Virus record (IMG/VR): IMGVR_UViG_3300045988_177530
Span: 1-42,792 of that record
From: a virus
Direction: 5' to 3' (one strand)
Length of the DNA stretch: 42,792 nucleotides
Part shown: positions 7,891 to 31,228 of the stretch, piece by piece
Layout: each line of letters starts with the position of its first letter
Numbering within the stretch: the first letter of the stretch is position 1
The notes under the pieces: generated by a model
What the model saw: only the letters and a program-made list of their open reading frames with translations
Databases searched by the model: none
What the model was told of the DNA's origin: nothing
Made by a program: the position numbers and the translations under genes

Positions 7891-7906
7891 TGTTTCACGT
7901 GAAACA
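7891..7906. promoter_or_regulatory. Perfect chromosomal-type parS site (ParB/Spo0J binding consensus), copy 1
   Basis: TGTTTCACGTGAAACA, a perfect 16-bp palindrome that starts 2 nt after the stop codon at 7887..7889. Confidence 0.7.
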
Positions 7907-7945
7907 TTCCCCCTCACCACGATTTCTGTGGTGAGGGGGAATGTT
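7903..7945. terminator. Bidirectional intrinsic-terminator-like hairpin between convergent gene blocks
   Basis: 18-bp perfect stem aacattccccctcaccac / gtggtgagggggaatgtt with a 7-nt loop. The left arm overlaps parS by 4 nt. Confidence 0.7.
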
Positions 7946-7965
7946 TTCGCGTCCGACACAGGAGA

Positions 7966-8433
7966 CTATAGTCCTAGGCGTTGGTAGTTTCCTCCGTGCT
8001 CGCGAGCAATATCGTCTAGGACGCCCATGAGATCGGAACGCGCATCGTCCTGAACGTCGATCGACGGTGAGTTCAGGATCGAGTGAATCGTGTTATTGAT
8101 CTCTCGGAATTGACGAGCAGCGATTGCGTCGCATTCTACACTGTCCCATCGCCGTGCTAGACGGCGCGCAAGATAAGACGTATTCTCACCGCTTGTTTTA
8201 TGGTAAACGCCTACAACATTCAATGGCCAGCCCCAGATGATCCATTTACTGAAAGTACCGCCGTCACCGTTTTCTACAGTGACGTCAATTCCAACACCCT
8301 TATGCTGGTCGTGCCACTTCAGATGAGCGGCCATGTGTGCTTCGTCAATGTCACATGCGTCGGGCTTCGGAAGCCACAACTGTGTGAGGCTGATCTCGTG
8401 CTCAATCTCCAGCATTGAGTTATTCGCTGTCAT
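7966..8433 (-). CDS. Hypothetical protein
   Basis: 155-aa ORF. Its start overlaps the upstream stop (ATGA at 8430..8433). Confidence 0.6.
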   Translation of the reverse strand: MTANNSMLEIEHEISLTQLWLPKPDACDIDEAHMAAHLKWHDQHKGVGIDVTVENGDGGTFSKWIIWGWPLNVVGVYHKTSGENTSYLARRLARRWDSVECDAIAARQFREINNTIHSILNSPSIDVQDDARSDLMGVLDDIAREHGGNYQRLGL

Positions 8434-8684
8434 GAGACGCTCCGCAAAAGTATGCTACAGCGCACTGCAGAATGGTTGGGGCCTTCGGACTCTCTGTGAG
8501 TCCATCCTGCTGAGACACCGCGCTTCGTCGTCACCACAACGCCGTCATCGGTGACCTCGATCTTTCCCGGCAAGCACTCAACGGTGGTGACTTTGCCGCG
8601 GTCGGAAATGCGAGGCGACGGGGTGATATTACGCAATTCCTTAACAATCGCCAACGCGATTTCCTGACGATCAATCTTGTCCAT
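8430..8684 (-). CDS. Hypothetical protein
   Basis: 84-aa ORF, translationally coupled on both sides. Confidence 0.5.
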   Translation of the reverse strand: MDKIDRQEIALAIVKELRNITPSPRISDRGKVTTVECLPGKIEVTDDGVVVTTKRGVSAGWTHRESEGPNHSAVRCSILLRSVS

Positions 8685-9202
8685 TATTCCACCTCCATAG
8701 CCGATGGTGTGACACCGACCTGTCCCTGATAATGCGACCCCAGACCGCCGGTGCCGTACGGCATACTGGCAGGCCTATCCAGATCCTCAAAAGCAATCTG
8801 CGCAATCCTATCCCCCGGATGAAGAATGGCGGGCTTGGTGGAGTGCAGGTTAGCGATCTCCAGGGTCACGTTTCCTTGGAATCCCGGGTCAATGTATCCC
8901 GCAGACACATGGACGAGAATTCCGCGTCGCGCCCACGACGACTTGCCCTCCACCCTGGCTACTAGGTCGGCAGGCACGCTCACTTTCTCCTGGGTGGACG
9001 CGAGAATAAACTCACCCGGCAATAACTCGTAACCATTCTCACCGATGGTGACATTCTCGTCACCGTGACGGTAGACGATAATGTTCTCGTCTAACCGCAC
9101 TTCTACCGACGCCGGTTGAATGGACAGCGGCTTATGCCAGTCAGAGATGAGTTCACCCCAATCGATTCTGCGTCGGAGAGTGAAATCACTCAGTGTAGCC
9201 AT
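8684..9202 (-). CDS. dcd: dCTP deaminase (dUTPase-fold family)
   Basis: 172 aa. Blocks EGKSSWARRGILVHVSAGYIDPGFQGNVTLEIAN and LHPGDRIAQIAF match the conserved Dcd/Dut-fold motifs (GKSS-aRlGl, aG-IDPGF-G-TLE). Confidence 0.75.
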   Translation of the reverse strand: MATLSDFTLRRRIDWGELISDWHKPLSIQPASVEVRLDENIIVYRHGDENVTIGENGYELLPGEFILASTQEKVSVPADLVARVEGKSSWARRGILVHVSAGYIDPGFQGNVTLEIANLHSTKPAILHPGDRIAQIAFEDLDRPASMPYGTGGLGSHYQGQVGVTPSAMEVE

Positions 9203-9656
9203 TCTGGCAGCTCCCGTCTTCGTTTTCCTTGATCATATGAACCTTGTAACCTTTATCGCACAGAATTGCTTTGGCTTCAAGAGCAAGGGCAGTCTTCTCT
9301 CCCGGGATGATTCCTACCGTGCCTCTACCGCGCTCTGACAGTACGATCGCACAGACGTACGCATTATCGTCCGATGAGTCGCTGTAAGTGAGCACATGCC
9401 CGCCTATCTCATCCGAATATGTGCACCTAGTAAAAGTAACTCTCCCTTCCTGCCATGAACGCAAGACAAGTGTTACTATCTGAATATGCTGCACGGTACG
9501 CATAAGCTCGCGGATCGCGGTGGACGGATCGGTCGAATAATTTCTGATAGTGAAGTTGCAGTCGGTGGCATGCATAAACGCGGCCGCGCCCCACAGTTCA
9601 CCACATTTCGCCAAATCAAAGAAAACAATCTCAACAACGTTCCCCATAATGCTCAC
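9186..9656 (-). CDS. Hypothetical protein
   Basis: 156-aa ORF in a tightly packed operon, with 4-nt and 17-nt overlaps to its neighbours. Confidence 0.55.
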   Translation of the reverse strand: MSIMGNVVEIVFFDLAKCGELWGAAAFMHATDCNFTIRNYSTDPSTAIRELMRTVQHIQIVTLVLRSWQEGRVTFTRCTYSDEIGGHVLTYSDSSDDNAYVCAIVLSERGRGTVGIIPGEKTALALEAKAILCDKGYKVHMIKENEDGSCQNGYTE

Positions 9657-10654
9657 TTTTCTTCCGGGATATAGTTGCTAAGGTGATCGTGTGAAATGGC
9701 GGATACGAACTCTGTGAGCCGGTCTCGAACCTCCCTGGCGCGATCCGCTGGGGCGAGCTGTCTATCGATAGTGTCCCAGTAGACGTTTCGCAGAATTGCG
9801 ATCACCGTCTGACCTCCCCGCTCTGCGGCGAGTTCACGCAGATACCACGCCGCCTTCCCCATATCAACATTCTCGTCGACACCATTCTTGTGACCTGCCC
9901 TGAAAATATACTTCAGGGCACTCCCGGTCAGATAGTCTTTGTCGCGAATGAAAGTGATGGGCTCAGGGTCGAGGGTTGCATAGTGTGACGGGTGAGTTAC
10001 CTCATTCTCATACGCATTATCCTCGACACGCCCGTCATTCTTCTCTGTGATATAGAGAGTGTCATCACACAAGGTCAACTCACAGTGCTGCTCGTCGAAC
10101 GTGAGAAACGCTCCCTCACCATTCTCACCCTTATACCAAATGCACCATTCGCCAGTGAAATACCGACAAACCTTCCTGACGGGCGCATCATAATCGTCGG
10201 AGACGCGGAAACGAATCGGTTCGTCCGTGAACTTCAACTCACAGCCAGGATCAATCTGATAGCCTACGATTCGCCGCCGATACCAACCGTCGCTCTTGTG
10301 CTCCAAATAAACACAACGACGACTCCAACATTCAATACGCCATTCACTACTAAGATAGCGGCGGACGTGCACCTCCCAAAACCCACCATGTGGCACTACC
10401 TTCAAAACATACTCATACACGCCATTCGGGTAGTAAATCTTCTCATACTCATCATCTACAGGTGACACAACATAATCTCCTCTTTTCGTCCGCGTGATCG
10501 AATAGTCGTTGTACTTGAAATAGTGTCTCCGCTCTACAGCACCCTGAACGGAATCGAAACCAATCCCCTTACTGTCGCCGGTTTGCGCTATGATTCTCTC
10601 TTTACTACCGTCCGGCAAGTACAGCCAAGCCGTCTTCAAAAACACCGTGTCCAT
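9653..10654 (-). CDS. DUF3310 (SaV / T7 gp1.7-like) domain protein with a long aromatic- and Cys-rich N-terminal extension
   Basis: C-terminal HPSHYATLDPEPITFIRDKDYLTGSALKYIFRAGHKNG...MGKAAWYLRELA matches the DUF3310 signature (HPSHY ... KY--R ... KA--YL). Confidence 0.6.
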   Translation of the reverse strand: MDTVFLKTAWLYLPDGSKERIIAQTGDSKGIGFDSVQGAVERRHYFKYNDYSITRTKRGDYVVSPVDDEYEKIYYPNGVYEYVLKVVPHGGFWEVHVRRYLSSEWRIECWSRRCVYLEHKSDGWYRRRIVGYQIDPGCELKFTDEPIRFRVSDDYDAPVRKVCRYFTGEWCIWYKGENGEGAFLTFDEQHCELTLCDDTLYITEKNDGRVEDNAYENEVTHPSHYATLDPEPITFIRDKDYLTGSALKYIFRAGHKNGVDENVDMGKAAWYLRELAAERGGQTVIAILRNVYWDTIDRQLAPADRAREVRDRLTEFVSAISHDHLSNYIPEEK

Positions 10655-10672
10655 AGCCGTTTTCTCGCTATT

Positions 10673-11002
10673 TCAGTTGCCGAGAGTGCCGACCGTGGCA
10701 AAGTAGGCGAAGAATACTTGGAGCCACCAAAAAGCACGCCACGCCAGAGACAGTCCGATAACTCCGATGATGAGGGCGACTGCACCCATGACCATGCCTT
10801 CGCCAGTGGACCGCGGCTTGCGGAGCCATGTTACGAAACGATTCGTAGGGCGCGGCGGCGCCATCGCACTGAGCGGCACAGACCATGCGGGGGGCGCCGG
10901 GGTAGGCCGAGGCGGCGGAGGAGGTGCGGGGGTAGGCGCGCTAGTCGCGGGCGGAGGAGGCGCGGGAGTAGGCGCCGACGGGGCACTCGAAAAAGTAGAC
11001 AT
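10673..11002 (-). CDS. Pro-rich membrane protein
   Basis: 109 aa. N-terminal APTPAPPPP-type repeats, then hydrophobic helices GMVMGAVALIIGVIGLSLAW and WWLQVFFAYFATVG. Confidence 0.5.
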   Translation of the reverse strand: MSTFSSAPSAPTPAPPPPATSAPTPAPPPPPRPTPAPPAWSVPLSAMAPPRPTNRFVTWLRKPRSTGEGMVMGAVALIIGVIGLSLAWRAFWWLQVFFAYFATVGTLGN

Positions 11003-11014
11003 AATAGTTGTTCC

Positions 11015-11595: not shown

Positions 11596-11632
11596 AGTAA
11601 TCCTCTTCTCAAAATATGTGTGTGATGGTGGG

Positions 11633-11668
11633 TGGTGGTGGCCCGTCGCCCATGACGGGCCACCACCA
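11633..11668 (-). terminator. Hairpin downstream of the 98-aa acidic gene
   Basis: 15-bp perfect stem tggtggtggcccgtc / gacgggccaccacca with a 6-nt loop, 12 nt beyond the stop at 11680. Confidence 0.5.
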
Positions 11669-11679
11669 TTATGCGTGTG

Positions 11680-14008: not shown

Positions 14009-14020
14009 ACAATCCATCCA

Positions 14021-14258: not shown

Positions 14259-14305
14259 ATAACATTCCCCGCCCAGCAATGATGACGCTAGGCGGGGAAT
14301 GTTAT
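14259..14305 (+). terminator. Terminator-like hairpin
   Basis: 15-bp stem ataacattccccgcc / ggcggggaatgttat with a 17-nt loop. It shares the AACATTCCCC/GGGGAATGTT arms with the hairpin at 7903. Confidence 0.5.
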
Positions 14306-14994: not shown

Positions 14995-15040
14995 AACATT
15001 ACTGCCCCCTACCGGATAGTCGGTGGGGGGCAGTAATGTT
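14995..15040. terminator. Bidirectional terminator-like hairpin
   Basis: 20-bp stem aacattactgccccctaccg / cggtggggggcagtaatgtt with one G-T pair and a 6-nt loop. The right arm overlaps parS copy 2 by 4 nt. Confidence 0.7.
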
Positions 15041-15052
15041 TCACGTGAAACA
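15037..15052. promoter_or_regulatory. Perfect chromosomal-type parS site, copy 2
   Basis: TGTTTCACGTGAAACA. Confidence 0.7.
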
Positions 15053-15061: not shown

Positions 15062-15077
15062 TGTTTCACGTGAAACA
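15062..15077. promoter_or_regulatory. Perfect chromosomal-type parS site, copy 3
   Basis: TGTTTCACGTGAAACA, 25 bp centre-to-centre from copy 2. It ends 1 nt before the stop codon of the RuvC-like gene (15079..15081). Confidence 0.7.
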
Positions 15078-15078: not shown

Positions 15079-15579
15079 TCACCTCCGCTCCGTGTCGTCA
15101 CCGATGATGCGGGCGATCACACCCTCGTCGTGGCGTTTAGTGACTGCCCACAGGAAAAGATGACGCCCCGCGTCCCGTGCGTCGTCCGCGTCCGGCTGGC
15201 CCACGTCAGTTCCTGTGGGCCAAAAACCAAGAATTTTCAGAACGTTATCGTGCATGGTTGTTTTTGCCATTGCGGGAGTCTGCCATACGATATCCCCGAT
15301 CTCCCATTCCAGTATAGAGTTGATTTTTACTGGGGTGAGGTCTGCGAGAAAATTGTTGCCAGGTCGAAGATCGAACTGTTCACACACGACAATGTCTGGG
15401 GCGAATTCGTTTCGTGTGGCCAGAATGTCGTAGGCGCTGGCCGTCCAATGCTCATACTTGAATTGCTGAACATGAATGATTGAGAATTCGCGGTCGTCGT
15501 GGAAGTCTCCGATGACGATTCCTGTTGACTTGCCGGGATCAACGGCCATCACCCGCTGCATCATACTTTTCCCCCTCAT
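15079..15579 (-). CDS. RuvC-like Holliday junction resolvase
   Basis: 166 aa. AVDPGKSTG, VVCEQF and DADDARDAGRH match the RuvC-fold acidic catalytic motifs. The start could instead be the internal MMQRV. Confidence 0.7.
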   Translation of the reverse strand: MRGKSMMQRVMAVDPGKSTGIVIGDFHDDREFSIIHVQQFKYEHWTASAYDILATRNEFAPDIVVCEQFDLRPGNNFLADLTPVKINSILEWEIGDIVWQTPAMAKTTMHDNVLKILGFWPTGTDVGQPDADDARDAGRHLFLWAVTKRHDEGVIARIIGDDTERR

Positions 15580-15580: not shown

Positions 15581-16624
15581 TCAATTTCGCAGGCTTCGCC
15601 GCGACTTGTTCACGTTGACGATACTTTTCGTAGTGTCTGTGCGCACACCGTCTACTTCGAGCCACAACGCGCCCGGCATCACCGGCTCCCCGCGCCCTTT
15701 CTTGAGAGCCCACGGCGTACCCGGGTCGCTCGGGAAAGGCAGATGCTTGTAGCACCATATTGCGCAATCCTGCGTAGAATCGAAACAAAAGTCCTCTTTC
15801 GGCACGTATCTTCTCATGTCGTAAATGCGTCGCATGAGTTTCGGGATAAGCCATTCTGGTACTTCTCTGTACATGCGGATTGACGGGCTAGTGCACGGGC
15901 AGACCACAGTCCTACCGCCACTGAAATGTGAAACGCGAAGCCACTTGTTTTCCCCGCAATTCACACAACGCATGTGGAAATGCTTATGACCATCTCTCAT
16001 AATCTTCCATTCGGGGGACACTACTTCCCATTGCTGGAAGCGTCGCCCCACCATTTCCGGCTGCACGCCAGTCATCGTCTTATAGGTTTTGGCAGGGTGA
16101 AGAATAAGACGATCGTGAGCTTCCTTCTCGTTCTCGGCGCACACTACTGAAATCTCGCCGGGGCGGAATACTCCGTTCTCTGTGGCGAATTCCCAATCGA
16201 ACACGACTGAAGGTTTGAATTCTTTGTAACACCATTCGATAGCCGACATCATGCCGTCGAACTCGAAATTATCTATACCGTTTCGTTCCCGCCATTTCCA
16301 AATCTTAAGACGAATGTCATTGTAGGAGCGATACGGCATAAGCGTGTCATTCACCTCACAGTATTGATGTGAGTACGGCGCGTCTGGGGGACGATTCAGT
16401 ACTATGTCGAGATTGCATGGGGCGATCGGTTTAGTAATGTCGGGGCGCGTGAAACGCCACTTATTGTCCTCGGGGACTTCCAAATACTTGAAACACCATT
16501 CGATAGCGGCGTCAATCGAGGGAAAAAGGAAATTCTCGCTACTAGTGCGGTAGCTGAGCTGGGTGAGTCTGTTAGCGACTATCCTGTACTGCTCATATGA
16601 TGGTTGCGTCATTTGTGCTTTCAT
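15581..16624 (-). CDS. Hypothetical protein with three internal repeats and a Cys-rich putative zinc ribbon
   Basis: Repeats ENFLFPSIDAAIEWCFKYL, DNFEFDGMMSAIEWCYKEF and EDFCFDSTQDCAIWCYKHL. CVNCGENKWLRVSHFSGGRTVVCPC. Spacing to GGAAGAGAG suggests the ATG at 16612 may be the real start. Confidence 0.6.
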   Translation of the reverse strand: MKAQMTQPSYEQYRIVANRLTQLSYRTSSENFLFPSIDAAIEWCFKYLEVPEDNKWRFTRPDITKPIAPCNLDIVLNRPPDAPYSHQYCEVNDTLMPYRSYNDIRLKIWKWRERNGIDNFEFDGMMSAIEWCYKEFKPSVVFDWEFATENGVFRPGEISVVCAENEKEAHDRLILHPAKTYKTMTGVQPEMVGRRFQQWEVVSPEWKIMRDGHKHFHMRCVNCGENKWLRVSHFSGGRTVVCPCTSPSIRMYREVPEWLIPKLMRRIYDMRRYVPKEDFCFDSTQDCAIWCYKHLPFPSDPGTPWALKKGRGEPVMPGALWLEVDGVRTDTTKSIVNVNKSRRSLRN

Positions 16625-16701: not shown

Positions 16702-17292
16702 TCAGAAAACTACCGACCACGAGGTATCGGTATTCTTTTTGGCCTCGAAATCAATGGAAGAAATCTCCGCCCTAGGAGGCCAGAACGCGGGCTTCGGAGC
16801 GCCATCCTCACCGAGAACTGTGACACCGTTCTCGTCCTGCTCGTATGCGGGGCGACCATAATCGTCAAGACGAGGCCTGGGCTTGCTCATTCGCGTCACC
16901 AATGTTGCGTGAGCGCCCTCCAGATTCTCGCACACTTTCTTCACGGTCGTATCGATCTTCTGCGGTGAGAGAAGATCGGCCCTCTCCTTGGCGTCGGCCG
17001 GCCAAAGACCAGCGGCGCTGAAATACTTCGGAATATTGAAGTGAATGAAAGTCTTTCCATTCTTGTTGATAGTGAAAACTGTGCGGTCAGTGAGCGCCTT
17101 TCCGGCATCCTCATCATCGCCGTCAATCATCCAATCGGTGACAAGCATCGGCCTGCCACTCTTGGAAGTGGTCATTTCAGCCTTAGTGATGAATGCTGAG
17201 TGCTTTCCGGGCTTGGGCGGCTCGAAGTTACCTCCGCCGGTGGCGACTTCCAGTGATGAGAGGTCGGTTCCAAAGTTGAAGCCAGTTGCCAT
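16702..17292 (-). CDS. DUF669-like protein; putative ssDNA-binding partner of the Sak4-type ATPase
   Basis: 196 aa. The N-terminal NFEPPKPGKHSAFITKAEMTTSKSGRPMLVTDW resembles the DUF669 signature. AGGAG lies 10 nt upstream. Adjacent to the AAA ATPase gene. Confidence 0.5.
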   Translation of the reverse strand: MATGFNFGTDLSSLEVATGGGNFEPPKPGKHSAFITKAEMTTSKSGRPMLVTDWMIDGDDEDAGKALTDRTVFTINKNGKTFIHFNIPKYFSAAGLWPADAKERADLLSPQKIDTTVKKVCENLEGAHATLVTRMSKPRPRLDDYGRPAYEQDENGVTVLGEDGAPKPAFWPPRAEISSIDFEAKKNTDTSWSVVF

Positions 17293-17479: not shown

Positions 17480-18232
17480 TTAGTGGCTAGTGATGTAATT
17501 GTGAATCTTGGTCATGCTCGGATTCCCCATTGCCGGGGGGAACCCGCGTGACTGTTGCTTCGTCACAACGTTCGGCTTGCGAGTGTACAGTACTGGCACG
17601 GTGATTTCTTCCCCGTCCCCATTGTCCACGTTCGCCCATTCCATGTAGCCGACGAAATTGAACAGGGCGGGGATGCGCTGCCCAGACTTCTGTCCCTCAA
17701 AAGACGGAGCAATGAAAACCTCCCCAGTAACCTCACTGCTCTCACGTGCGGAATGCGTGATAGCAATGAATGAAATGTCGGGGGCGTTCAAGAATACGCT
17801 GATCGCCTTCAACAAGGAATCGTATACCGCCCGCCATTTCGTCCAAGTGTCATTCGACACGGCCTCGTAGTGGGTCAGAATGAGTTCCTGGCACTTATCC
17901 AACGTGTCGAACACTACTGTCTTGTAGGGGAATTCTGCACGATTGCGTGCGATATTGTCGCAAAGATTGGCGCAATCAAGCCACTTATCGCAATGCACGA
18001 CAGTAAGGTTTGCAGGGTTCCCCCAATCCCGTACCGGGAGCGTGCCGGATTCGAAATCAACATACAAAACGGGCGACATGTCGTCCACCTGTGACGCCGT
18101 GGCTGCGAGCGAAGTTTTGCCGACGCCACTCACGCCATGAATAAGCATATTGAAATAATTATTCTGTTCCGGGTTCACGACCGTCATTCCGAGACGGGCG
18201 AGAGTGTCTTCGAAAGTCATGTTATGTTTCAC
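17480..18232 (-). CDS. RecA-fold AAA ATPase (Sak4 / AAA_24-like recombination ATPase)
   Basis: 250 aa. Walker A MLIHGVSGVGKTS and Walker B-like TVVFDTLD. Confidence 0.7.
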   Translation of the reverse strand: MKHNMTFEDTLARLGMTVVNPEQNNYFNMLIHGVSGVGKTSLAATASQVDDMSPVLYVDFESGTLPVRDWGNPANLTVVHCDKWLDCANLCDNIARNRAEFPYKTVVFDTLDKCQELILTHYEAVSNDTWTKWRAVYDSLLKAISVFLNAPDISFIAITHSARESSEVTGEVFIAPSFEGQKSGQRIPALFNFVGYMEWANVDNGDGEEITVPVLYTRKPNVVTKQQSRGFPPAMGNPSMTKIHNYITSH

Positions 18233-18235: not shown

Positions 18236-18985
18236 CTAACCGTTCATATTGTAATTTTTGAATGCCTGCGTGTGGCGCTCATGTGAACAGTACCAACATA
18301 GGGGGGACGATTGGAGGCTGTCAACCCCACCGTCATGTGACCTTGCTCTCTTCCAAATGTTTTGGAGTCTCTCCAGAGCCGCGAGCGCAACGTCCTGTCG
18401 CCACGGGAAAGAGAACTCACAAATACTGTTCGGCACTACCTCTACGCTGCAGTCCCTTGGGAGAGCAACAATAGAACAATGTGCTACCTCGTGTCCGATC
18501 TGCGCGAGACCGTACCCGTAGAGCATGATTTGAATATAGTATTTACGAAATTGGCTTCCTGCCGCCGTGTCGGCGAATCGCGGTAGACCATTGTCCCATT
18601 TAATGCCCTTCCGGAATGCGGAAATCTTTTTCCGTGAGAGCAGCTTCCAGTCTAGGACCGTCGCCGCCGCAATATCGAAGCGATCCACACTCCCAGAAAT
18701 ACGCCCATAGTCTTCAAGATCGCATACCCCTACTCTCTGTTCCACTAGAACATTCGGCTCGTTTTTTGTGCGCGATTCCGCGAAAGCATGAAATGCGGTG
18801 CCCAGGAAAGGCGCCAAAAAGGCGCCCGCATCCTTCGTGTCGTGCGGGATCCCGAGGAGTTTGTCGGCAATACAGCGCTCGCAATCGTCCCCGATTTCGC
18901 TCACGCCGATGCGCGTTTGTTTGTCACGCTCGGTCGGGGCGAAAACATTACTGACCGCTGTTGCGGCGGCCGGGCTCAAATTCAA
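18236..18985 (-). CDS. PD-(D/E)XK nuclease, Cas4/RecB-like, with four conserved Cys
   Basis: SEIGDDCERCIADK, GTAFHAF, VDRFD, LDWK, QIMLYGY and CWYCSH. Start uncertain. The full ORF reaches 19123 but overlaps the well-supported upstream gene, so a TTG at 18985 or 18979 is proposed. Confidence 0.65.
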   Translation of the reverse strand: MNLSPAAATAVSNVFAPTERDKQTRIGVSEIGDDCERCIADKLLGIPHDTKDAGAFLAPFLGTAFHAFAESRTKNEPNVLVEQRVGVCDLEDYGRISGSVDRFDIAAATVLDWKLLSRKKISAFRKGIKWDNGLPRFADTAAGSQFRKYYIQIMLYGYGLAQIGHEVAHCSIVALPRDCSVEVVPNSICEFSFPWRQDVALAALERLQNIWKRARSHDGGVDSLQSSPLCWYCSHERHTQAFKNYNMNG

Positions 18986-19214
18986 ATTTCTCCCCTTCCT
19001 GAATTGCGGCGATAGCGGCGAGCCTGACGTCACGCTGGACTTCAATGTCCCCGCTCGCAATATCTTCAATGAAGAATAGTCTTGCGTCGCCGGCCGGCAT
19101 GATTTCATAGACCGTACCGTCAATCTCTTCTGCTCGCATTGCGGCTTGCTCGAGATTCGAGTAGACCCGGTAGTCGCCTTTCTGCTGCGATTCCCATACT
19201 AGGTAGACGCCCAT
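18948..19214 (-). CDS. Hypothetical protein
   Basis: 88 aa, preceded by ATTTAGGGAAGAGAGAGC. Confidence 0.6.
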   Translation of the reverse strand: MGVYLVWESQQKGDYRVYSNLEQAAMRAEEIDGTVYEIMPAGDARLFFIEDIASGDIEVQRDVRLAAIAAIQEGEKFEFEPGRRNSGQ

Positions 19215-19792: not shown

Positions 19793-21187
19793 TTATATGA
19801 GGCCGCTCTCACGCAGACGCTCATACCCCGCCGCCAACCTCGGCTCCACGGCCGTCACGTCAACAGTATTCTCACACTGCAAAAGAAAGCGATTCACCCG
19901 CTTTGTTTGCCCCTTACGATTCAAACGAGCAGACGCCTGCAAATTCAAAATCACACTATTATCCTCACTCAACCAAACCTCAGTATTGCAAACATTCTGC
20001 AGACCGTCAATCCCTTCGGCGGCGGCCGCAATAACGGCGCAAAGAATCCTCGGCCCATCGGGCTTCAAAAACTGTCGCCACTCATCCCGATAATCGCTGG
20101 ACAATTCAACGCTCTGATAGCCAGCATCGGCCAGCCGCTTCCGCAACGGCGCCATGAATTTACGTGAGTGGCACCAAAAGATAACTCTCTCGTCTGACGG
20201 CAAATCAGACAGAATATCGAGGGCGGAGTCAATCTTCGATGACCCACGCTCTTCGAACTCGACACTATCGCCCACGATTTTCAACGGCCCGAGAGTAATC
20301 TGCCTGAGCCTCCCGTCGAGAACGGCGGCGGACGAAGCTACACTAGCCCCACCACCCATAATCGCCAAACGATGATCCACGAATTCCCGATACATTCTCT
20401 TCTGTTCACGCCGCATCCCACAGGCAATACGCTGAACATTTACGGGAGGTAGATCGCCGAAAACTTCACTCCCCCGCATCGCGGACCAATTGTCGCCCAC
20501 GGAATCGCGGAGAGCTCCAGGATCCTTCTCTCCACCGTAAATCCTGGCATACGGGTGCGCCGCAAAAGGATTGAACTGAGAAACGAAAAACTCGTCAGCA
20601 AACCGGTAGAAACTACAGTCGACACTGTCCGGGTTCAGGAATTTGAGTACCCCGTAAATGTTGACGGGCTTATTGCCGGCAGGCGTGCCCGACAGGCCGA
20701 GACGATATTTTGATTTCAACGCCTTCACGGCCCTGAAAGACTGAGTACGGTGATTCGCGATACGGTGCACCTCATCCACGACCACCATATCGAACGATTT
20801 CCTTGAGAAAGAAATGGTCGGCCACTTCCCCGCGTCTACCGCCTTTCCTAGGGAAACCAATAGCTCGAAATTAATGACACACCAACCGTCTTCACCGTCC
20901 AGCATGCTCTCAATGTTGGTGCGCCCCGCTTTAGTGGTGCGAGACAGTACCTTCGCTTCCCGGCCGGTGATGGTCTTGATGCTGGCCTGCCATGACGGGA
21001 TGACGCGCTTCGGACACACAATGATGACCCGTCTGGCCGCGTCGAGTTTTTGCGTGACCCAGATTGCGCCGTATGTTTTGCCGCAGCCGGGTTCCCACGC
21101 AAGTAAAGCACCGCCGCCGCCTCGAATCGCGGCGGCGGCGCGGTTGATTTCTCTTTCCTGCGCCCCAGTGGGGCGAATATTAATCAT
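19793..21187 (-). CDS. SNF2/DEAD-like superfamily 2 helicase
   Basis: Motif I WEPGCGKT, motif II VVVDEVHRI, motif III LSGTPAGN, motif VI QASARLNRKGQTKRV. ATG at 21187. Confidence 0.8.
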   Translation of the reverse strand: MINIRPTGAQEREINRAAAAIRGGGGALLAWEPGCGKTYGAIWVTQKLDAARRVIIVCPKRVIPSWQASIKTITGREAKVLSRTTKAGRTNIESMLDGEDGWCVINFELLVSLGKAVDAGKWPTISFSRKSFDMVVVDEVHRIANHRTQSFRAVKALKSKYRLGLSGTPAGNKPVNIYGVLKFLNPDSVDCSFYRFADEFFVSQFNPFAAHPYARIYGGEKDPGALRDSVGDNWSAMRGSEVFGDLPPVNVQRIACGMRREQKRMYREFVDHRLAIMGGGASVASSAAVLDGRLRQITLGPLKIVGDSVEFEERGSSKIDSALDILSDLPSDERVIFWCHSRKFMAPLRKRLADAGYQSVELSSDYRDEWRQFLKPDGPRILCAVIAAAAEGIDGLQNVCNTEVWLSEDNSVILNLQASARLNRKGQTKRVNRFLLQCENTVDVTAVEPRLAAGYERLRESGLI

Positions 21188-21271
21188 TGAAATTCGTCCA
21201 AACAATCACTAGAAGACAAATGGTGAGCGTGAACGCTAGTAGTGCCACTTGTTTTTCCTCTTTTCCGTACA

Positions 21272-21630: not shown

Positions 21631-22530
21631 TCACATCTCCAGTTGGAGGAGAGACAACGCCTCACCCACGGCCGCACTCACATCACCGCCACACTCCAGC
21701 AACCTCATGCAATCGAAAGCTGTGTGCGCCCTGCCGTCCGCGAGCGGATCATCCACATGATGCGAGAAGACCAGACCACTGTCTAGCATCGTCACACCCG
21801 GGGCCGTGTTGCCGCCACGCACATACCGCCACCGCCGCCCCACCGACTCGTAAGGCCAGCCAAACAAACCGACAAGATCATTAAAACTATACTTTGAATT
21901 GAACTCCCCAATCACACCACCATAGCCGCCATCGGGCACAGAAACCGAAGAAACATCATCATTCCTCTCCTCATATCCTATGTTTCCCAACCATTTATCA
22001 ACATTCAAACGGGCGCCGTCAATAAGCCAATGACGCACCCTCAAACCAAGACGATGCGACGGCAGGAAAAAAGCTCGGGACGCCTCAGCGCACGACCCGT
22101 CCCACTGGGCCACCGGCCCCAACACACTAAAACACGTCCTGCCGATCGCCTCGCATTCCCTCACGGTCATGCTGCGAGTGCACGGCAGAACAACACGAAA
22201 TCGCGGGGACGGGAAAGACGACGACGCCGTCTCCCACACAATGCCGGCAAGATTCGCCGCCCGCATACGGTCCCCGACAAAATCTTTCCTCGACCCATGA
22301 TCCGCATCCAAAACAATCGCCGACCGGGACACGAAATTCCTTTTCTGCCGCCTCCCCCCTGAAAGAATGCCAGCAAAAAAAGCGGGAGCATCATATTTCT
22401 CGCATTTCGAGGGCGCCTCACACAAGGCAGCGAAATCGCTCAGGTTTACGCTAGTAGCACGCCACCCTGTGATAGAGCGAACATTGCCCGCTACCATCAC
22501 AGGGAAACGCGCCCCGAAAACATCACTCAC
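21631..22530 (-). CDS. Putative primase/polymerase-like (AEP-type) protein
   Basis: 299 aa. AIVLDADHG is a DxD-like motif, and RFRVVLP with FFLPSH resembles Prim-Pol / VirE-N-type proteins. Overlaps the DUF3987-like gene by 8 nt. Assignment made by eye only. Confidence 0.4.
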   Translation of the reverse strand: MSDVFGARFPVMVAGNVRSITGWRATSVNLSDFAALCEAPSKCEKYDAPAFFAGILSGGRRQKRNFVSRSAIVLDADHGSRKDFVGDRMRAANLAGIVWETASSSFPSPRFRVVLPCTRSMTVRECEAIGRTCFSVLGPVAQWDGSCAEASRAFFLPSHRLGLRVRHWLIDGARLNVDKWLGNIGYEERNDDVSSVSVPDGGYGGVIGEFNSKYSFNDLVGLFGWPYESVGRRWRYVRGGNTAPGVTMLDSGLVFSHHVDDPLADGRAHTAFDCMRLLECGGDVSAAVGEALSLLQLEM

Positions 22531-24094
22531 TGTACGATGGTTCCGCTATCTGATCCCGCAGAATCGCCTCCACGAGATCATTATCCACAATAGTCCCTTC
22601 CGTCCGGAACTTCACGCCCCGACGAAGAATATACTGCCGATACTCCTCGACACTCCGCGGAGACAAATTCTTCGCCTCCAAAACCTGATACAAACGCGTC
22701 TCAGTCGGCGGATTACTACTGAAATCATCCACCATACGCGTCAAATCCGGAACAAAAACATAGTCGATCATTTTCAACGCGTCAGGCAACCAGAAATCGG
22801 CGGCAAGGCTGAAAGCTTTCCTCACCGCAGACGATGACACGCTCATCTGCTGCTCGAAAAGAGACAGAATAGCGGCCACGCGCATAATATGATTCCCCAT
22901 GCGGTCAACGACCGCCTGCACCGCGCGCTGGAAAGGCGACTCGCGGGCCGCCTCCCAGCACCAAGCCCGCATCGTTTCTACCCAAACATTCCGCGCAGAC
23001 TCGGTCACGGTCATAGTCATTGGCGTGTTGACAGGCCAAAACTCGGTGGCACAAGTGACAGTGCCACGGAATTCGTGCTGCATCATGCCCAGCATTGTTG
23101 AAATGCGCTCGGAAGCACGCTCAACAAAACCATCGCCACCATGCGCGTTCCGGTCATTGTCGGTGACCCATCCGAAAGACGACGGATCAGACCGACGATT
23201 CTCCTCATCCAACGCGAAAAGAATACGCGGCCCCCAGCCCGTCTCAAACAAAGACTGTGGCATATTGTCGACTACGTCGCCGAGAATCCCGGTACCGCAG
23301 AAAGCAAGAGAATGAGGAACCCGCTCACTGTCCGCCCGCCTGACACCATCGTCACCGACACGCACAGACTCGACCGTTTTCCCCGAGTAGACGTCGGTCA
23401 GGAACCCGATGAGCCCGCTACGATAACCCTCCCCCTGTGACGCGGAGTACATGTTCTGCAGTTCGTCTACGAACATGATAGACGCCCCACCAGGACGCTG
23501 CGCCATCCGAAGATTCAAACCCTCAGCCGTAACATTCGACCCGAACAAAACATTCGCCATAAGAGACCGCTCGCACGGGCTATTCCCGATAGTATTCAGC
23601 AAATCCTTACGATCAGCCTCGAACTCGGTGATGCGATTATTGATGCCGTCCCGCTCAGTCCGGTACTCGTCAATATCAATACGCCCGCTTCTCTTTTCCA
23701 GGGATTCCAGGCGACGGTACAGCATGCGGAGTGCCGAATCAACCTCCTGCACCGCTGCCAAAGGCGCCAACGAATCCCACCTGAACGCGCCCACGCAATC
23801 ATCGAAAAAACTACGCACCAAAGACTGCGCCGTCGTTTTCCTCGACAGGGTAGACGCCCCCAGGCAGTGCGAGTACAAAGTCAACGGCACCATACTCTGC
23901 GCGCTCGCCGACAAATGAGTCCTCGCAGACAACGGCGCAGACACCATCGTCAAGAAAGTCGTCCACAAGAAACGGGACGGCGTCTCCGGAGACTTAGACT
24001 GCAAATAGTCAACAATCCTGTCGGCGAACCAATCATAATGCACACCCACATCCGGAGACGCGAACTCGTAATCCGCAATCCTCTCAATACTCAA
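22523..24094 (-). CDS. DUF3987-like putative replicative helicase
   Basis: 523 aa. Degenerate P-loop-like GASTLSRKT and Walker-B-like IMFVDELQ. Typical partner of Prim-Pol domains in actinophages. Confidence 0.4.
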   Translation of the reverse strand: MSIERIADYEFASPDVGVHYDWFADRIVDYLQSKSPETPSRFLWTTFLTMVSAPLSARTHLSASAQSMVPLTLYSHCLGASTLSRKTTAQSLVRSFFDDCVGAFRWDSLAPLAAVQEVDSALRMLYRRLESLEKRSGRIDIDEYRTERDGINNRITEFEADRKDLLNTIGNSPCERSLMANVLFGSNVTAEGLNLRMAQRPGGASIMFVDELQNMYSASQGEGYRSGLIGFLTDVYSGKTVESVRVGDDGVRRADSERVPHSLAFCGTGILGDVVDNMPQSLFETGWGPRILFALDEENRRSDPSSFGWVTDNDRNAHGGDGFVERASERISTMLGMMQHEFRGTVTCATEFWPVNTPMTMTVTESARNVWVETMRAWCWEAARESPFQRAVQAVVDRMGNHIMRVAAILSLFEQQMSVSSSAVRKAFSLAADFWLPDALKMIDYVFVPDLTRMVDDFSSNPPTETRLYQVLEAKNLSPRSVEEYRQYILRRGVKFRTEGTIVDNDLVEAILRDQIAEPSYSE

Positions 24095-27428: not shown

Positions 27429-27866
27429 TCATATGAGATCAATGCCCTTCTCCTCCAGTACACACTCAATCTCCTCAACATTATCTACATCCGCGCCGGC
27501 AACGCTGATGCCGCAGTCGACATTGCCGTCACCGTGCTCAATAATTTCAAGCTCAAGCGAGACACGGTCCAAACCGAAGACGATTTGCCTGCCCAATAGT
27601 GCGACAGGGTGCACGTCCACATATCCTGCAGCGCGGAGAATGTCAAGGGCGCGGATCATCATGTCAGCGCCGCGCGCGACATTGGCGAGTAGTGTCGTCA
27701 TATATTCGGGCGTCTCTTTTTTGTCGACGACGCTCACCATGTAGCTCGTTCCGTCCATGTGCTCGATCATAATTGCGAACCGAGCCGGGATATCGTCTGA
27801 CGGCTTCGCGGCCCTACGCACGTCCATGTGTCGGATGAGCATTTCCTCGTTCAGTGTGTTACTCAT
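27429..27866 (-). CDS. Hypothetical protein; first gene of the leftward early operon
   Basis: 145 aa, preceded by GAAGAAGAGAGGACGCG. Confidence 0.6.
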   Translation of the reverse strand: MSNTLNEEMLIRHMDVRRAAKPSDDIPARFAIMIEHMDGTSYMVSVVDKKETPEYMTTLLANVARGADMMIRALDILRAAGYVDVHPVALLGRQIVFGLDRVSLELEIIEHGDGNVDCGISVAGADVDNVEEIECVLEEKGIDLI

Positions 27867-28110
27867 TTGTACGCGTCCTCTCTTCTTCGCGCACCGACCT
27901 TCGGTGGCGCGTCTACCATAGAACGGCGGAGGGTGATATTGTCAACCATCGGTGCATGTGAGATGCGTCTCAGTGGGCTACGGGAGCTCCCGTGGCTCCG
28001 AGACCCCAAGGTGTGACAGAGCACACTATCTGGGGGTCTTGCGCCATCCAAGTCCCGGAAGCATTCTTATACCAATAGAACAGCCCAACTGACCAGGAAG
28101 GAAAGAGAAA
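27867..28110. promoter_or_regulatory. Divergent intergenic control region containing the 14-bp palindrome ACGGGAGCTCCCGT (27980..27993)
   Basis: 244 nt between divergently oriented genes. I could not place promoters confidently. Confidence 0.4.
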
Positions 28111-28455
28111 ATGAACACCACCATCCACCGCACCGAGGACCTCGCCCTCGAGACCGTCGAGTTCGGCGTCATCTACCGGGTCCACGCCCCCCGCACCGGC
28201 GAACCCTGGACCCTCTACAAGGTAGACGACGACTGCGGCGTCGACTCCATTGAGCCGTTGGACGTCCCTGACGAATGGGATGACGCCTACGAGTATCCGA
28301 TGGGGTACAGGGGCATTTGGTTTCGTTTAGCTCGCCTCGCCATGGACGCCTATCTCGCTCACGCCATCCTTGAGGTGGCCCTCGTCCCCGTCGTCGACGA
28401 GGAGGTGGACGCCGACTCGCGCGCCCTGCTGTACCGCTTCACCTGGCCCTACTGA
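28111..28455 (+). CDS. Acidic hypothetical protein, monocistronic
   Basis: 114 aa with 23 D/E against 9 K/R by my count. RBS GGAAGGAAAGAGAAA upstream and its own terminator downstream. Confidence 0.65.
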   Translation: MNTTIHRTEDLALETVEFGVIYRVHAPRTGEPWTLYKVDDDCGVDSIEPLDVPDEWDDAYEYPMGYRGIWFRLARLAMDAYLAHAILEVALVPVVDEEVDADSRALLYRFTWPY

Positions 28456-28475
28456 CCCGACCGGTCCGAGGACGA

Positions 28476-28513
28476 CTGAGGCCCCACCCTCCACGACGAG
28501 GGTGGGGCCTCAG
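28476..28513 (+). terminator. Intrinsic-terminator-like hairpin
   Basis: 15-bp perfect stem ctgaggccccaccct / agggtggggcctcag with an 8-nt loop, 20 nt after the stop. Confidence 0.6.
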
Positions 28514-28583
28514 TGCGTCTACTGTGGAAGGGCGGTGTGCGATGGGGGGTGTCGGCCGCCACGGCGCCTATCTTTCACAGTTT

Positions 28584-28780
28584 CCGTTAACCTCCCGTTC
28601 ATCTTGTTTACCTTCCGTTTACTTTCTACGCATGCCGGTTGTTTGCTAGCAACTGGCCTTCTAGGGACAAAACACCCGTTTGTGTTACTACAATGTTGGT
28701 GCGTGTCGTCACACTTTCTACCCCTGTAACAAGGGTTTGTGTCAGTGTGTTTCGCGTGATTGCAACGTTTAGTCCCCGTT
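28584..28780 (+). repeat. Five copies of YCCGTTY in a G+T-rich non-coding stretch
   Basis: CCGTT at 28584, 28595, 28615, 28676 and 28776, all in the same orientation. Confidence 0.4.
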
Positions 28781-28943
28781 TCAAGTTGTTTTGTTGGCAG
28801 TGTTCGTAGCTGGGACTTTAGTCTATATGCTACACTCGAGTAGACGAATCGTCGAAGACGATCGGCGGCGTAGCCGCTGAGGAGCCCTAGCGACGCAAGC
28901 GAGCGTCAGCGCCGCCGGGTGTTTTCGAGGAGCTCGCCACTGT

Positions 28944-29014
28944 GTTGGGCCCAACCTATACTCTTAAAAGAGTACTAGAATTAGACACTGTCTAACACAT
29001 CTAGACAGTGTCTA
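28944..29014. promoter_or_regulatory. Cluster of operator-like palindromes
   Basis: GTTGGGCCCAAC (28944..28955). TACTCTT-aa-AAGAGTA just downstream. TAGACACTGTCTA (28982..28994) and TAGACAGTGTCTA (29002..29014) with centres 20 bp apart. Confidence 0.5.
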
Positions 29015-29204
29015 TTTAGGGAATACGTGTTATGACGTAATTAAGGGCACACAGTGTTCAATGTTGAGTACTGTTACCGTTGACAACGAACAGTGTGTGG
29101 TGGGAACAACAAACATTGTGTGATGGATGCAACAAGCATTACATATGATGCTGCACACACACCACCAAGTAAACACACACAAACACAAAGGCGCGTGTCG
29201 TGCT

Positions 29205-29237
29205 ACGTGTGTGCTCGCAGAGCTGCGCGCACACTAC
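29205..29237 (+). repeat. 33-nt hairpin-forming element followed by a polypurine tract, copy 1, upstream of the HNH gene
   Basis: acgtgtgtgctcgcagagctgcgcgcacactac. 29 of 33 nt are identical to 29851..29883. An A/G tract follows at about 29254..29296. Confidence 0.7.
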
Positions 29238-29393
29238 ACGACACACGCCAACCCAAAACAAAAAAGAAGAAAAACAAGAAAAGAAAAAAGAAAGAGTAGT
29301 GTTAGACGGTGGAGGCGCTCGTCTCGCTGACGCTGCGACGCGCCACCACCTAACACAAAACAAGAAAAGCGACAAGAGAAGAGGAGAATAACG

Positions 29394-29738
29394 GTGAGCA
29401 GAACAAGCACGCGAGAACACCGGCAATTCAGAAAACAAGTACTCGCCAGAGCACAAGCCATGGGCATCACACACTGCCCAGCATGCGGAGTCAAACTCCA
29501 ATACAACAATAACGGTAAACGCAAACCCAACAGCGCCGAAGCCGACCACATAATCCCAGCCTCGTTAGGCGGAACCAATCACCCAGACAACGGCAGAATC
29601 CTCTGCGCCAGATGCAACAGCAGACGAGGCAACGGACGAGGAGGCAAAGGAAGAGCACGCCACTACCAAAAAAACGAAGACGAACGAGACAGACTCCCTA
29701 TTGCTGTCATGCCCACCGAACACTCTGACACATGGTGA
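29394..29738 (+). CDS. HNH endonuclease, terminase-associated type
   Basis: GTG start preceded by GAGAAGAGGAGAATAAC. HCPACG ... ADHIIPASLGG ... DNGRILCARCNSRRGN. Confidence 0.85.
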   Translation: MSRTSTREHRQFRKQVLARAQAMGITHCPACGVKLQYNNNGKRKPNSAEADHIIPASLGGTNHPDNGRILCARCNSRRGNGRGGKGRARHYQKNEDERDRLPIAVMPTEHSDTW

Positions 29739-29850
29739 CCCCCCCGCCATTCCAAACACAGAAAGGCGGAACGCGAAAAAGCGAGGAGAAAGGAAGAGAG
29801 AATAGCAAGAGAGCAGCAAGAGACAAGAAACACAATGGTGTTCGGGGATA

Positions 29851-29883
29851 ACGTGCGTGCTCGCGGGGCTGCGCGCGCACTAC
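29851..29883 (+). repeat. 33-nt hairpin-forming element followed by a polypurine tract, copy 2, downstream of the HNH gene
   Basis: acgtgcgtgctcgcggggctgcgcgcgcactac. An A/G tract follows at about 29896..29935. Confidence 0.7.
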
Positions 29884-30585
29884 CCCGAACACCAACAAGA
29901 CAAAGAGAAGAAGAAGGAAAACAGAGAAAGACAAACAACAAGACCACCACACCTTCGCACACACCACCATTCCATCCAACACAAACCATCACCGCCATTC
30001 CACAATGACACAACCCTGTCACAAAACACGCCACTAAACCAACAATGCTGTGACAGCAAACACACTGAAGGGTGGGGTGATGCAAGAAGGCAGGACAATA
30101 CAAGGCGCCAGACCCAACCCGAACACGGGACATCACAACACACCCCCCGTCATTCAACACGGCCACCACGCAAACAGAAAGGGGACACCAATACTAAACA
30201 AGGGGGACACCACACGCAACGGGAGGGCCACCATCACAACACCCGCCCCTTCAACACTATGCCACCCCACCTCGCCATGCCCCCCGCCATTCACGATGGC
30301 CGCCCCCTCCACCACTATGAGGGGGGAGCAGACAAAGGACACCCGTCACACGAACACCACAGACACACACACCACCCACACACCACACACCCGACAGAGA
30401 ATAGTGCACGACACGACAACAGCACCGACGAATACTGCACTGGGAAGAGTAGGACAAGGGCCGGACTACACGCACTGGACGGACCAACAGCACACACCAC
30501 CGCCATTCCACACACCACACACGAGAGGATGGACACCATCCACCCACCCACTCTCACACTATTCACATTCACACAACCAACGAAC

Positions 30586-30685
30586 GATCACGATCAACAA
30601 TGATCAACGATCAATGTTCGATCAACAATCAACGAACAATGAACAATGAACATGATAATGATCAATGATGATGAACATGATCAAC
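30586..30685 (+). repeat. Seven GATC-containing heptamers (GATCAAY/GATCAC) within 100 bp, followed by GAT/ATG trinucleotide runs
   Basis: GATC at 30586, 30592, 30602, 30609, 30620, 30660 and 30679. ATGAACATGAT occurs three times. This is locally the most A+T-rich part of the region. Confidence 0.8.
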
Positions 30686-30749
30686 ATGATGAACATGATG
30701 ATGATTACAACGATGATGATGTGATGCATGACATGCATACCAATACCAT

Positions 30750-30765
30750 GCACCATGCATGGTGC
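30750..30765. promoter_or_regulatory. 16-bp perfect palindrome GCACCATGCATGGTGC
   Basis: Read directly from the sequence. Two further ATGCAT hexamers lie just upstream. Confidence 0.6.
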
Positions 30766-30806
30766 CAACACATGCCACAAAGGCAACACGCAACGCACAA
30801 ACGCAC

Positions 30807-30859
30807 AAAAACGCATAAAAACAAAAGAAATGTTACAAAAACATGCAAAAACATTCAAA
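30807..30859 (+). other. Six helically phased A-tracts; predicted intrinsic DNA bend
   Basis: A-runs start at 30807, 30817, 30828, 30837, 30847 and 30857, a spacing of about 10 bp. Confidence 0.7.
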
Positions 30860-31087
30860 GGCACGAATCAAACAATGGCGTTCAAAAAAACCATGGCAAC
30901 AAAACAAGGCGAACACAAGGGGGGCCCCAAGACAGTAAGGGATCCCTTAAACACGGGACCCATGTCACAAAACAAGACGAGGGTTGGACGAAACGAGACG
31001 CACACCACACAATTTACGTGATGGGGGCCACTCCCCCTCCCCCATCCGGCCACGAACACCCCGAAGGTCTGCCCATCCCTCCCTGCT

Positions 31088-31228
31088 TGTGGAAAACCCT
31101 GTGGATAACTCCAGTAACCCAGACCACAGTGTGACTGCCATCATGTGGAAAACTCCCCAACCTGTGGAAAACCCTGTGGAAAACTCAGACAGCTTGTGGA
31201 AAACCCTGTGGAAAACCCCGTGGGAACA
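31088..31228 (-). repeat. Array of seven DnaA-box-like 9-mers plus one degenerate copy, all in one orientation
   Basis: TGTGGAAAA (reverse complement TTTTCCACA) at 31088, 31144, 31163, 31175, 31195 and 31207. TGTGGATAA (reverse complement TTATCCACA) at 31100. Degenerate gtgggaac at 31220. Confidence 0.6.

Follow-up and report, generated by a model that had tools for sequence, protein, structure and literature searches.

Host-type parS sites and a cos-proximal DnaA-box array in a virulent-type actinophage genome

The closest described counterpart of the arrangement reported here is found in the virulent phage phi29, which carries five host parS sites that are bound by the host protein Spo0J (ParB), which through them segregates the phage genome into the prespore (PMC2731898; summarised in PMC9437464). 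Spo0A boxes at the promoters and genome ends of phi29 suspend transcription and replication (PMC2731898; PMC9437464), and through CtrA sites, virulent alphaproteobacterial phages likewise read a host cell-cycle regulator (PMC9437464). In T5-like phages, about eight DnaA boxes of consensus or near-consensus sequence form pairs 3 bp apart in non-coding DNA near a genome end; these boxes are not at the replication origin and lie in the first-step-transfer region (bioRxiv 10.1101/866236). Here we describe IMG/VR record IMGVR_UViG_3300045988_177530 (the window, meaning the whole stretch of 42,792 nucleotides that was analysed), which carries three exact host-type parS sites and an array of seven consensus DnaA boxes beside its cohesive end site (cos). 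The kind of strategy is known; what is new is the combination of host ParB sites on a virulent phage without ParB and a cos-proximal DnaA array, in an actinophage. We tentatively favour a reading in which host ParB and DnaA are put to use by the phage, for persistence of the phi29 kind and for coupling to the state of its host.

P1 is a phage genome that combines a par centromere with DnaA boxes at oriR. Extrachromosomal mycobacteriophage prophages are reported to use parABS systems (PMC7157519). Prophages of the P1 type and the parABS prophages of actinobacteriophages have their own ParA and ParB, a private parS, a Rep or RNA origin and repressors, whereas none of these was found in the window phage. 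SGI1 is reported to hijack the ParAB proteins of an IncC plasmid through parS sites that it carries (PMC10954446). SGI1 is alike in being a mobile element that relies on the ParAB of another replicon via its own parS sites, but it is an integrative element exploiting a helper plasmid and not a phage exploiting a chromosomal system. An earlier note on this DNA had held that complete reliance on host ParB and DnaA would be an undescribed arrangement. That view has to be given up in light of the parS sites and Spo0A boxes of phi29 (PMC2731898), the DnaA boxes of T5-like phages and the arrays that we observe in unrelated phage contigs. The literature searched on lytic phages yielded no actinophage with host parS sites or with DnaA boxes at cos.

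parS sites at bidirectional terminators

The parS 16-mer TGTTTCACGTGAAACA is present in three exact copies, starting at positions 7891, 15037 and 15062 (Table 1). Each copy is a 16-bp palindrome matching the chromosomal-type consensus tGTTNCACGTGAAACa, and the three are ParB sites on the strength of their sequence. The expected count is 0.03 with up to two mismatches allowed, and no shuffle reached the observed number. Further degenerate copies are absent from the genome. The three perfect sites announced by the earlier note are therefore real, far beyond chance and conserved across about 60 related metagenomic genomes.

All three sites are located at the two junctions of convergent transcription, where they abut the two bidirectional terminators. 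At the first junction, parS1 starts 2 nt 3' of the stop codon that closes the last late gene (6900-7889), and it is joined to hairpin T1, whose minimum free energy is -51.9 kcal/mol on one strand and -46.2 kcal/mol on the other (z about -8). At the second junction, parS2 has its first 4 nt in common with the right arm of hairpin T2 (about -58 kcal/mol, with z about -8), and parS3 ends 2 nt short of the stop codon of the leftward RuvC-like gene. The terminator arms (AACATT...AATGTT) extend the parS flanks. A decayed second parS half-site is found 3' of T1, and three relatives (L139, L167 and L170) have a perfect fourth parS about 50 bp downstream, on the far side of this hairpin.

The 14-mer core of parS is present at site 1 in 61 of 61 related loci. 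Across 60 unique relatives no column of this core varies, in contrast to the hairpin loop and the flanks, which do. The tandem parS2/parS3 pair is retained in 35 of the 40 relatives that reach the region, with a single site in four and none in one, and the spacing of the pair drifts between 22 and 26 bp with the sites intact. Because the core is invariant and the loop, flanks and spacing vary, purifying selection appears to act on the parS sequence itself and not on the hairpin alone.

A third strong hairpin (14259-14305, minimum free energy -30.7 kcal/mol) has the arms AACATTCCCC...GGGGAATGTT in common with the two parS terminators and is free of parS. A TATAAT hexamer lies directly 3' of it.

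DnaA boxes at the left cohesive end

Seven 9-mers fit TTWTNCACA, the Schaper-Messer DnaA consensus, all on the minus strand (31088, 31100, 31144, 31163, 31175, 31195 and 31207). One has the sequence TTATCCACA and six have TTTTCCACA; a degenerate eighth box is found at about 31220. The boxes form three tandem pairs 3 bp apart (31088/31100, 31163/31175 and 31195/31207) with a single box at 31144. First-order Markov simulations (500 runs) gave at most two boxes in any 150-bp window, against the observed seven in 128 bp, so that the cluster, too, is confirmed, with an exact count of seven.

Arrays of five to nine boxes are found in 31 relatives. Their 10-mer TGTGGA[A/T/c]AAC is invariant except at position 3 of the box, which is A in 155, T in 53 and C in two copies. 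Judged from the aligned copies, the array follows DnaA-box rules, with variation falling at the position that DnaA boxes tolerate. The rare C variant gives TTGTCCACA, the high-GC actinobacterial DnaA-box consensus. Exact copies of the 22-mer box pair TGTGGAAAACCCTGTGGAWAAC occur in at least 120 bacterial genome contigs from many phyla, and among the matches listed, 39 loci have five or more boxes per 400 bp. The ORFs (open reading frames) flanking five of the loci were scanned, and at two of these five the 22-mer is directly upstream of dnaA; the two belong to Microbacteriaceae and Pyrinomonadaceae and are located beside yidC. Since the 22-mer matches chromosomal pairs, including pairs upstream of dnaA, the phage repeat is in sequence a canonical chromosomal DnaA-box pair, and the host-type character that the earlier note had ascribed to the cis elements is genuine. 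Among the at least 120 contig matches listed for the 22-mer, no copy of the phage was found in an isolate genome.

Measured from the left cohesive end, the array lies 18-145 bp inward. Nine or more independent contigs have TGCCCATCC as their exact start, which corresponds to window position 31070 (TGCCCATCCC). In one relative (L226, positions 1-20) an Illumina adapter is fused directly to the left end of the phage, and two others (L209 and L237) start with a snap-back inverted copy of the phage end; the adapter and the snap-backs are assembly artefacts that mark the physical terminus. The 55 bp before 31070 are the most conserved non-coding stretch of the region (0.98). Together, the contig starts, the adapter fusion and these conserved 55 bp identify 31070 as the physical left end (cos). 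About 30 bp past the end of the array, a TATAAT hexamer precedes the ATG at 31259, and the hexamer, a 7-nt spacer of variable sequence and the ATG are kept in relatives. From what is known of Actinobacteria, we infer that this hexamer marks a leaderless promoter of the terminase/late operon.

In phage lambda, cosB comprises the terminase R sites and a site for integration host factor (IHF); repeats and a bend are located just inside the terminase-proximal end, and a host DNA-binding protein assists. The window phage also has repeats just inside its terminase-proximal cohesive end, with the end at 31070 and the first box at 31088. However, its repeats are consensus DnaA boxes and not private terminase sites, and they vary between five and nine copies among near-identical phages. 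They are absent from Actinomyces phage LC001, which has a similar cos element and a large terminase (TerL) that is only 30% identical. Since LC001 has a cos-like element without boxes, the array is probably not intrinsic to this type of cos.

The earlier note had read the cis elements together as the signature of a bacterial origin region. Like oriC, the array consists of tandem, co-oriented consensus boxes 3 bp apart. The side of the boxes on which unwinding elements should lie follows from how the DNA unwinding element (DUE) is arranged relative to box R1 in E. coli. A basal unwinding system (BUS) needs at least three NAN trios within about 16 bp of a box pair, followed by AT-rich DNA (PMC8287927). 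At no box pair of the window did we find DnaA-trios (three or more NAN within 16 bp on the correct side) or an adjacent AT-rich DUE. The 5' flanks of all TGTGGAWAA boxes are GC-rich, the flank of the first pair is cos itself, and the sole NAN run is on the wrong side. A dnaA/dnaN context is also missing, the neighbours of the array being cos, the putative small terminase (TerS) gene and TerL. An oriC unwinding module was rejected on this trio and DUE geometry. With the array at cos and the late promoter, no trios or adjacent DUE, and the GATC cluster across cos, the origin signature is not supported.

The AT-rich, GATC-containing element that the earlier note had placed, with a bend, next to the boxes is present in the window. 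Seven GATC motifs are found within about 100 bp (30586-30679). The genome-wide count of 188 is as expected (about 164), and the local excess is due to tandem repeats of 7 and 9 bp (AACGATC and ATGATGAAC). These AT-rich repeats have an identity of 0.80-0.87 among relatives. They are possibly phage iterons or an unwinding region, and they might serve the phage as its origin or belong to the packaging region. A-tracts phased at 10 bp (30799-30859) fit an intrinsic bend.

Several other non-coding features precede cos. The block 28821-29020 (conservation 0.94) contains a near-perfect palindrome, TAGACACTGTCTA...TAGACAGTGTCTA (28979-29017), where the strand composition changes over; the block is a candidate origin, or early control region, of the phage itself. 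From 29100 to 31540 (2.4 kb), the plus strand is strongly depleted of T, with an AT skew of about 0.5. This stretch spans the HNH gene, some 1.3 kb that appear to be non-coding and the putative TerS gene, and the 13-mer CCCCCCGCCATTC occurs four times in it. The ends of the LC001 record have a similarly T-poor composition. Three long GC-rich hairpins (29190-29249, 29305-29350 and 29836-29894) have a conservation of 0.94-0.97 in 18 relatives, against merely 0.54-0.58 for the A-rich spacers between them. They match no Rfam family and could be structured elements, of RNA or DNA, lying between the early region and cos.

Gene content, phage type and occurrence in other phages

Pfam and PHROGs searches with concatenated queries, run over all plausible ORFs, returned no ParA, ParB, Rep, integrase, excisionase, protelomerase or repressor. 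The ParB box-II motif GERR, scanned for separately, is in no real gene of the window. No immunity or repressor gene able to silence the lytic genes was found in the same Pfam and PHROGs searches, and the window phage does not have a self-contained parABS system, in which an element encodes both ParA and ParB. The earlier note had recognised neither partition and integration genes nor an initiator. Its statement is borne out for ParA, ParB, integrase, excisionase and protelomerase, but not for the initiator: a primase-polymerase-like protein and a DUF3987 protein are encoded side by side and, on their family matches, are a phage replication initiator-helicase pair.

Table 1 Coordinates of features in the window and of DnaA-box arrays in unrelated phage contigs
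Feature	Position	Strand	Basis and remarks
parS1, exact host-type ParB site	7891-7906	.	Sequence match; fused to terminator T1
Terminator hairpin T1, bidirectional	7903-7945	.	AACATT-CCCCCTCACCAC...GTGGTGAGGGGG-AATGTT; between convergent late (+) and leftward (-) operons
Terminator hairpin T2, bidirectional	14995-15040	.	Between lysis operon (+) and early/replication operon (-)
parS2, exact host-type ParB site	15037-15052	.	Sequence match
parS3, exact host-type ParB site	15062-15077	.	Sequence match; 25 bp after parS2, start to start
RuvC-like resolvase	15079-15579	-	Pfam/PHROGs
DUF669	16702-17292	-	Pfam/PHROGs
AAA_24/Sak4-like ATPase	17480-18232	-	Pfam/PHROGs
Cas4-like exonuclease	18236-19123	-	Pfam/PHROGs
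SNF2 helicase	19793-21205	-	Pfam/PHROGs
Primase-polymerase-like protein	21631-22530	-	PHROGs primase/helicase-primase: phrog_256, phrog_9765, phrog_10514 and phrog_3228 across the 21631-24094 pair
DUF3987 helicase/primase	22523-24094	-	Pfam DUF3987, E=2.7e-14; PHROGs
HNH endonuclease, upstream of terminase region	29394-29738	+	Pfam/PHROGs; 52% amino acid identity to LC001 HNH
AT-rich 7- and 9-bp tandem repeats	30583-30731	+	AACGATC, ATGATGAAC; about 340-490 bp left of cos
10-bp phased A-tracts, fit intrinsic bend	30799-30859	+	About 210-270 bp left of cos
Conserved cos element	31015-31069	+	ACGTGATGGGGGCCACTCCCCCTCCCCC..GAACACCCCGAAGGTC; similar element in Actinomyces phage LC001
Array of 7 consensus DnaA boxes	31088-31215	-	Sequence match; 128-bp span
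TATAAT -10 hexamer	31246-31251	+	7 nt before ATG 31259; about 30 bp past array end
Small ORF, 93 amino acids, 5' of TerL	31259-31540	+	Putative small terminase by position alone; no Pfam match
Large terminase (TerL)	31542-33035	+	Pfam Terminase_6N; 50% amino acid identity to Spartoi
DnaA-box array of contig L544	1765-1944		Directly upstream of TerL
DnaA-box array of contig L460	2737-2835		Between late genes
DnaA-box array of contig L474	6817-6895		Between replication and late modules
DnaA-box array of contig L537	5380-5683		Intergenic, late or packaging region

The leftward early module also includes a dCTP deaminase and a DUF3310 protein. The HNH endonuclease upstream of the terminase region is typical of cos phages with HNH-terminase pairing, and the small ORF that may encode TerS has the gene order seen in related actinophages, in which gene 1 or 2 is ahead of the terminase. 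The structural genes encode an SPP1-type portal, a VG15/MuF-like protein, an HK97-fold capsid, tail proteins and a Spherulin4-like protein, and the tape-measure gene (1476 amino acids) spans the window junction. An endolysin and a holin make up the lysis genes. Many ORFs of the window have no Pfam or PHROGs annotation, and tRNA and Rfam scans of the window gave no matches.

An ORF of 347 amino acids on the minus strand (15581-16624), two genes from parS2 and parS3, has three internal W-C-[FY]-K repeats and a Cys-rich segment; it matches no family and could be a DNA-binding protein. The intergenic region 27866-28111 separates a leftward ORF of 145 amino acids from a rightward one of 114 and has the layout of a genetic switch. 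In neither of these two ORFs is a helix-turn-helix or repressor domain recognisable.

The first and last 55 bases of the window are identical (1-55 and 42738-42792). This direct repeat is an overlap from circular assembly and not a biological repeat, and as the signature of such an assembly it shows the window to hold a genome that is complete at about 42.7 kb. Among IMG/VR records there are at least 60 near-identical genomes (89-99% amino acid identity), several of them from Human Microbiome Project samples. There are 71 assembly blocks with the exact major capsid protein, and no contig that carries it exceeds 50 kb. These two observations indicate an abundant, non-integrating, human-associated actinophage. 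Integration as a prophage was rejected, given that the capsid protein is never on a contig above 50 kb and that the terminal repeat is an assembly overlap. The window phage is a virulent-type cos siphovirus of a human-associated actinobacterium. No close relative at the DNA level was found among GenBank phages. The top protein matches are to the Actinomyces (Schaalia) phage LC001 (portal 55%, capsid 59% and HNH 52% amino acid identity), and the terminase of Rothia phage Spartoi is 50% identical to TerL of the window. By tblastn, the host group is loosely placed among oral Actinomycetota.

Both motifs also occur in other phages. Exact parS matches of host type, in many cases paired in tandem at 24-34 bp, are present in three phi29-like podovirus contigs (L006, L013 and L070; in L013 at 5526/5552 and 12131/12155), in a contig with an SU10-type portal (L061, 10536-11448) and in one with an HK97-fold capsid (L023). 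No ParB was seen among the ORFs checked in these five contigs. Arrays of five to ten consensus DnaA boxes resembling those of oriC are found in intergenic late or packaging DNA of unrelated bona fide phage contigs (Table 1). In contrast, nine other actinophage lineages (seven sharing the endolysin family, Spartoi and LC001) have neither parS nor DnaA-box arrays in the stretches that could be read. A general trait of endolysin-family, Rothia or Schaalia phages was rejected on these nine negative lineages. Since all nine are without both motifs, the pair of traits appears to be a specific and maintained acquisition of the window lineage.

Possible roles of the host-type sites

Carrying both sets of sites without encoding ParB or DnaA most resembles the trick of phi29, here in a new phage group and with DnaA boxes added. 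Like phi29 and Nf, the window phage is of the virulent type, has no detectable ParAB or integrase and carries several parS sites of host consensus. In phi29 and Nf, sites for a host master regulator are located at promoters and ends; the window phage has DnaA boxes at its left end, by the late promoter. The two differ in that phi29 is a protein-primed, 19-kb podovirus of a spore-former with Spo0A as the regulator, whereas the window phage is a 43-kb cos siphovirus of an actinobacterium, probably a non-spore-former, with DnaA as the second factor and with parS fused to bidirectional terminators. The window array shares with T5-like phages a set of about eight boxes, in pairs 3 bp apart, near the genome end of a lytic phage. 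In T5, however, the boxes are in large inverted repeats within a 10-kb terminal repeat, the host is Gram-negative and there is no parS, while in the window phage the boxes are co-oriented and next to cos and the late promoter. No inverted repeats of the IRC/IRD type surround the window array, and the genome ends in cos and not in long terminal repeats.

Sequence, position, conservation and gene content are what the analysis establishes; from these we infer, as the most economical account, that host ParB and DnaA bind at these sites and that the phage benefits. Host ParB-CTP clamps would load at parS and tie the phage DNA to the segregation apparatus of the host (ParA, possibly SMC). A phage genome whose development is held up in slow-growing cells could thereby be positioned and inherited instead of being lost. 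With DnaA on the array, late transcription and packaging, or else replication start, would be tied to the initiation status of the host.

Several points weigh against co-option for persistence. The nearest isolates, LC001 of Schaalia and Spartoi of Rothia, are merely 50-59% identical in amino acid sequence. Both of these host genera are non-sporulating, and the host of the window phage is probably also a non-spore-former, so that the spore-entrapment rationale of phi29 is not directly transferable. In the limited sample of isolate-genome data no copy of the phage was found, whereas a carrier state would predict one. Since nine actinophage lineages are without both motifs, infection of this host group does not require the trait. 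Next to the boxes are cos and the putative TerS gene, and this is the classical location of terminase-binding repeats. Finally, the parS sites are in transcribed 3' untranslated regions, where as RNA they extend the terminator stems or pair with one another, and a purely RNA or terminator role is conceivable; such folding cannot, however, account for the exact sequence identity of the sites.

Four other explanations address the same observations. During lytic growth, hundreds of parS and box copies might soak up ParB and DnaA or recruit SMC, as a decoy or take-over that blocks host initiation and segregation or condenses the phage DNA, with no role in persistence. This is unlikely but merits attention, and it had also been proposed in the earlier note. 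The sites are of high-affinity consensus and present in several copies per genome, a box count that varies between five and nine suits a dosage function more than a precise architecture, and the gene content is purely of the lytic type. Yet each genome has no more than three parS sites, which relatives keep precisely at the terminators, the boxes beside the promoter stay strictly in pairs, and it is not obvious what a phage with replication genes of its own would gain. Another possibility is a plasmid-like episome, in which the boxes and the AT-rich repeats, joined on ligation of cos, form a DnaA-dependent origin and parS provides partition by host ParAB, allowing stable carriage without integration. 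Plasmid origins often combine iterons and DnaA boxes, and in the circular form of the window the AT-rich 7- and 9-bp repeats are 370-490 bp from the boxes. The missing integrase and the confinement to contigs of up to 50 kb fit an episome, as does SGI1, which is reported to show that an element with parS only can hijack the ParAB of another replicon (PMC10954446). We nevertheless consider an episome quite unlikely: the BUS test failed, with the GC-rich cos on the trio side of the box pairs, Pfam and PHROGs turned up neither a repressor nor an immunity gene, a primase-helicase is part of the phage's own gene set, and the isolate-genome matches listed include no copy of it.

It is very unlikely, in our estimation, that the resemblance to host sites is incidental and that the elements serve private phage functions, the boxes as cosB-type TerS sites and parS as parts of RNA 3' ends or terminators, or as operators for an unrecognised phage protein. 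Such functions would agree with boxes that begin 18 bp from the physical end and ahead of the putative TerS gene, with parS joining very stable RNA structures at the terminators, with a hairpin (14259-14305) that has the AACATT/AATGTT arms but no parS, and with the many unannotated ORFs. On the other hand, an exact 16-bp consensus in three copies together with a 22-bp chromosomal pair is unexpected for unrelated roles, variation among the relatives obeys DnaA-box rules, the cos-like element of LC001 is free of boxes, and the motifs recur at other positions in unrelated phages. Scarcely credible, in our judgement, is a part in DNA entry as hypothesised for T5 (bioRxiv 10.1101/866236), by which membrane-associated DnaA would capture the array during injection and pause or anchor the incoming DNA. 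T5-like phages do share the pair geometry (eight boxes, 3 bp apart), but the T5 model is itself a hypothesis, and the window phage has neither the IRC/IRD inverted-repeat architecture nor A1/A2-like genes. In lambda-type cos phages, moreover, the terminase-proximal end is packaged first and enters last.

If host ParB and DnaA do act on this phage, hitch-hiking on host factors as in phi29 would no longer be confined to one family of Bacillus podoviruses but would be shared by an abundant siphovirus of human-associated Actinobacteria, and DnaA would join the host regulators that are read by virulent phages. In a wider reading, which we regard as rather doubtful, virulent-type phages of non-sporulating bacteria, the very abundant window phage among them, would enter a heritable, cell-cycle-coupled carrier state by means of cis-acting parS sites and DnaA boxes alone, without any phage maintenance protein, and the arrays in unrelated lineages would be signatures of a widespread third lifestyle. 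Our side survey suggests that both motifs recur in several unrelated phage lineages, and a systematic census could be worthwhile. Co-option of host ParB and DnaA would also provide a mutable cis-element handle on how "lytic" phages persist in slow-growing biofilm communities.

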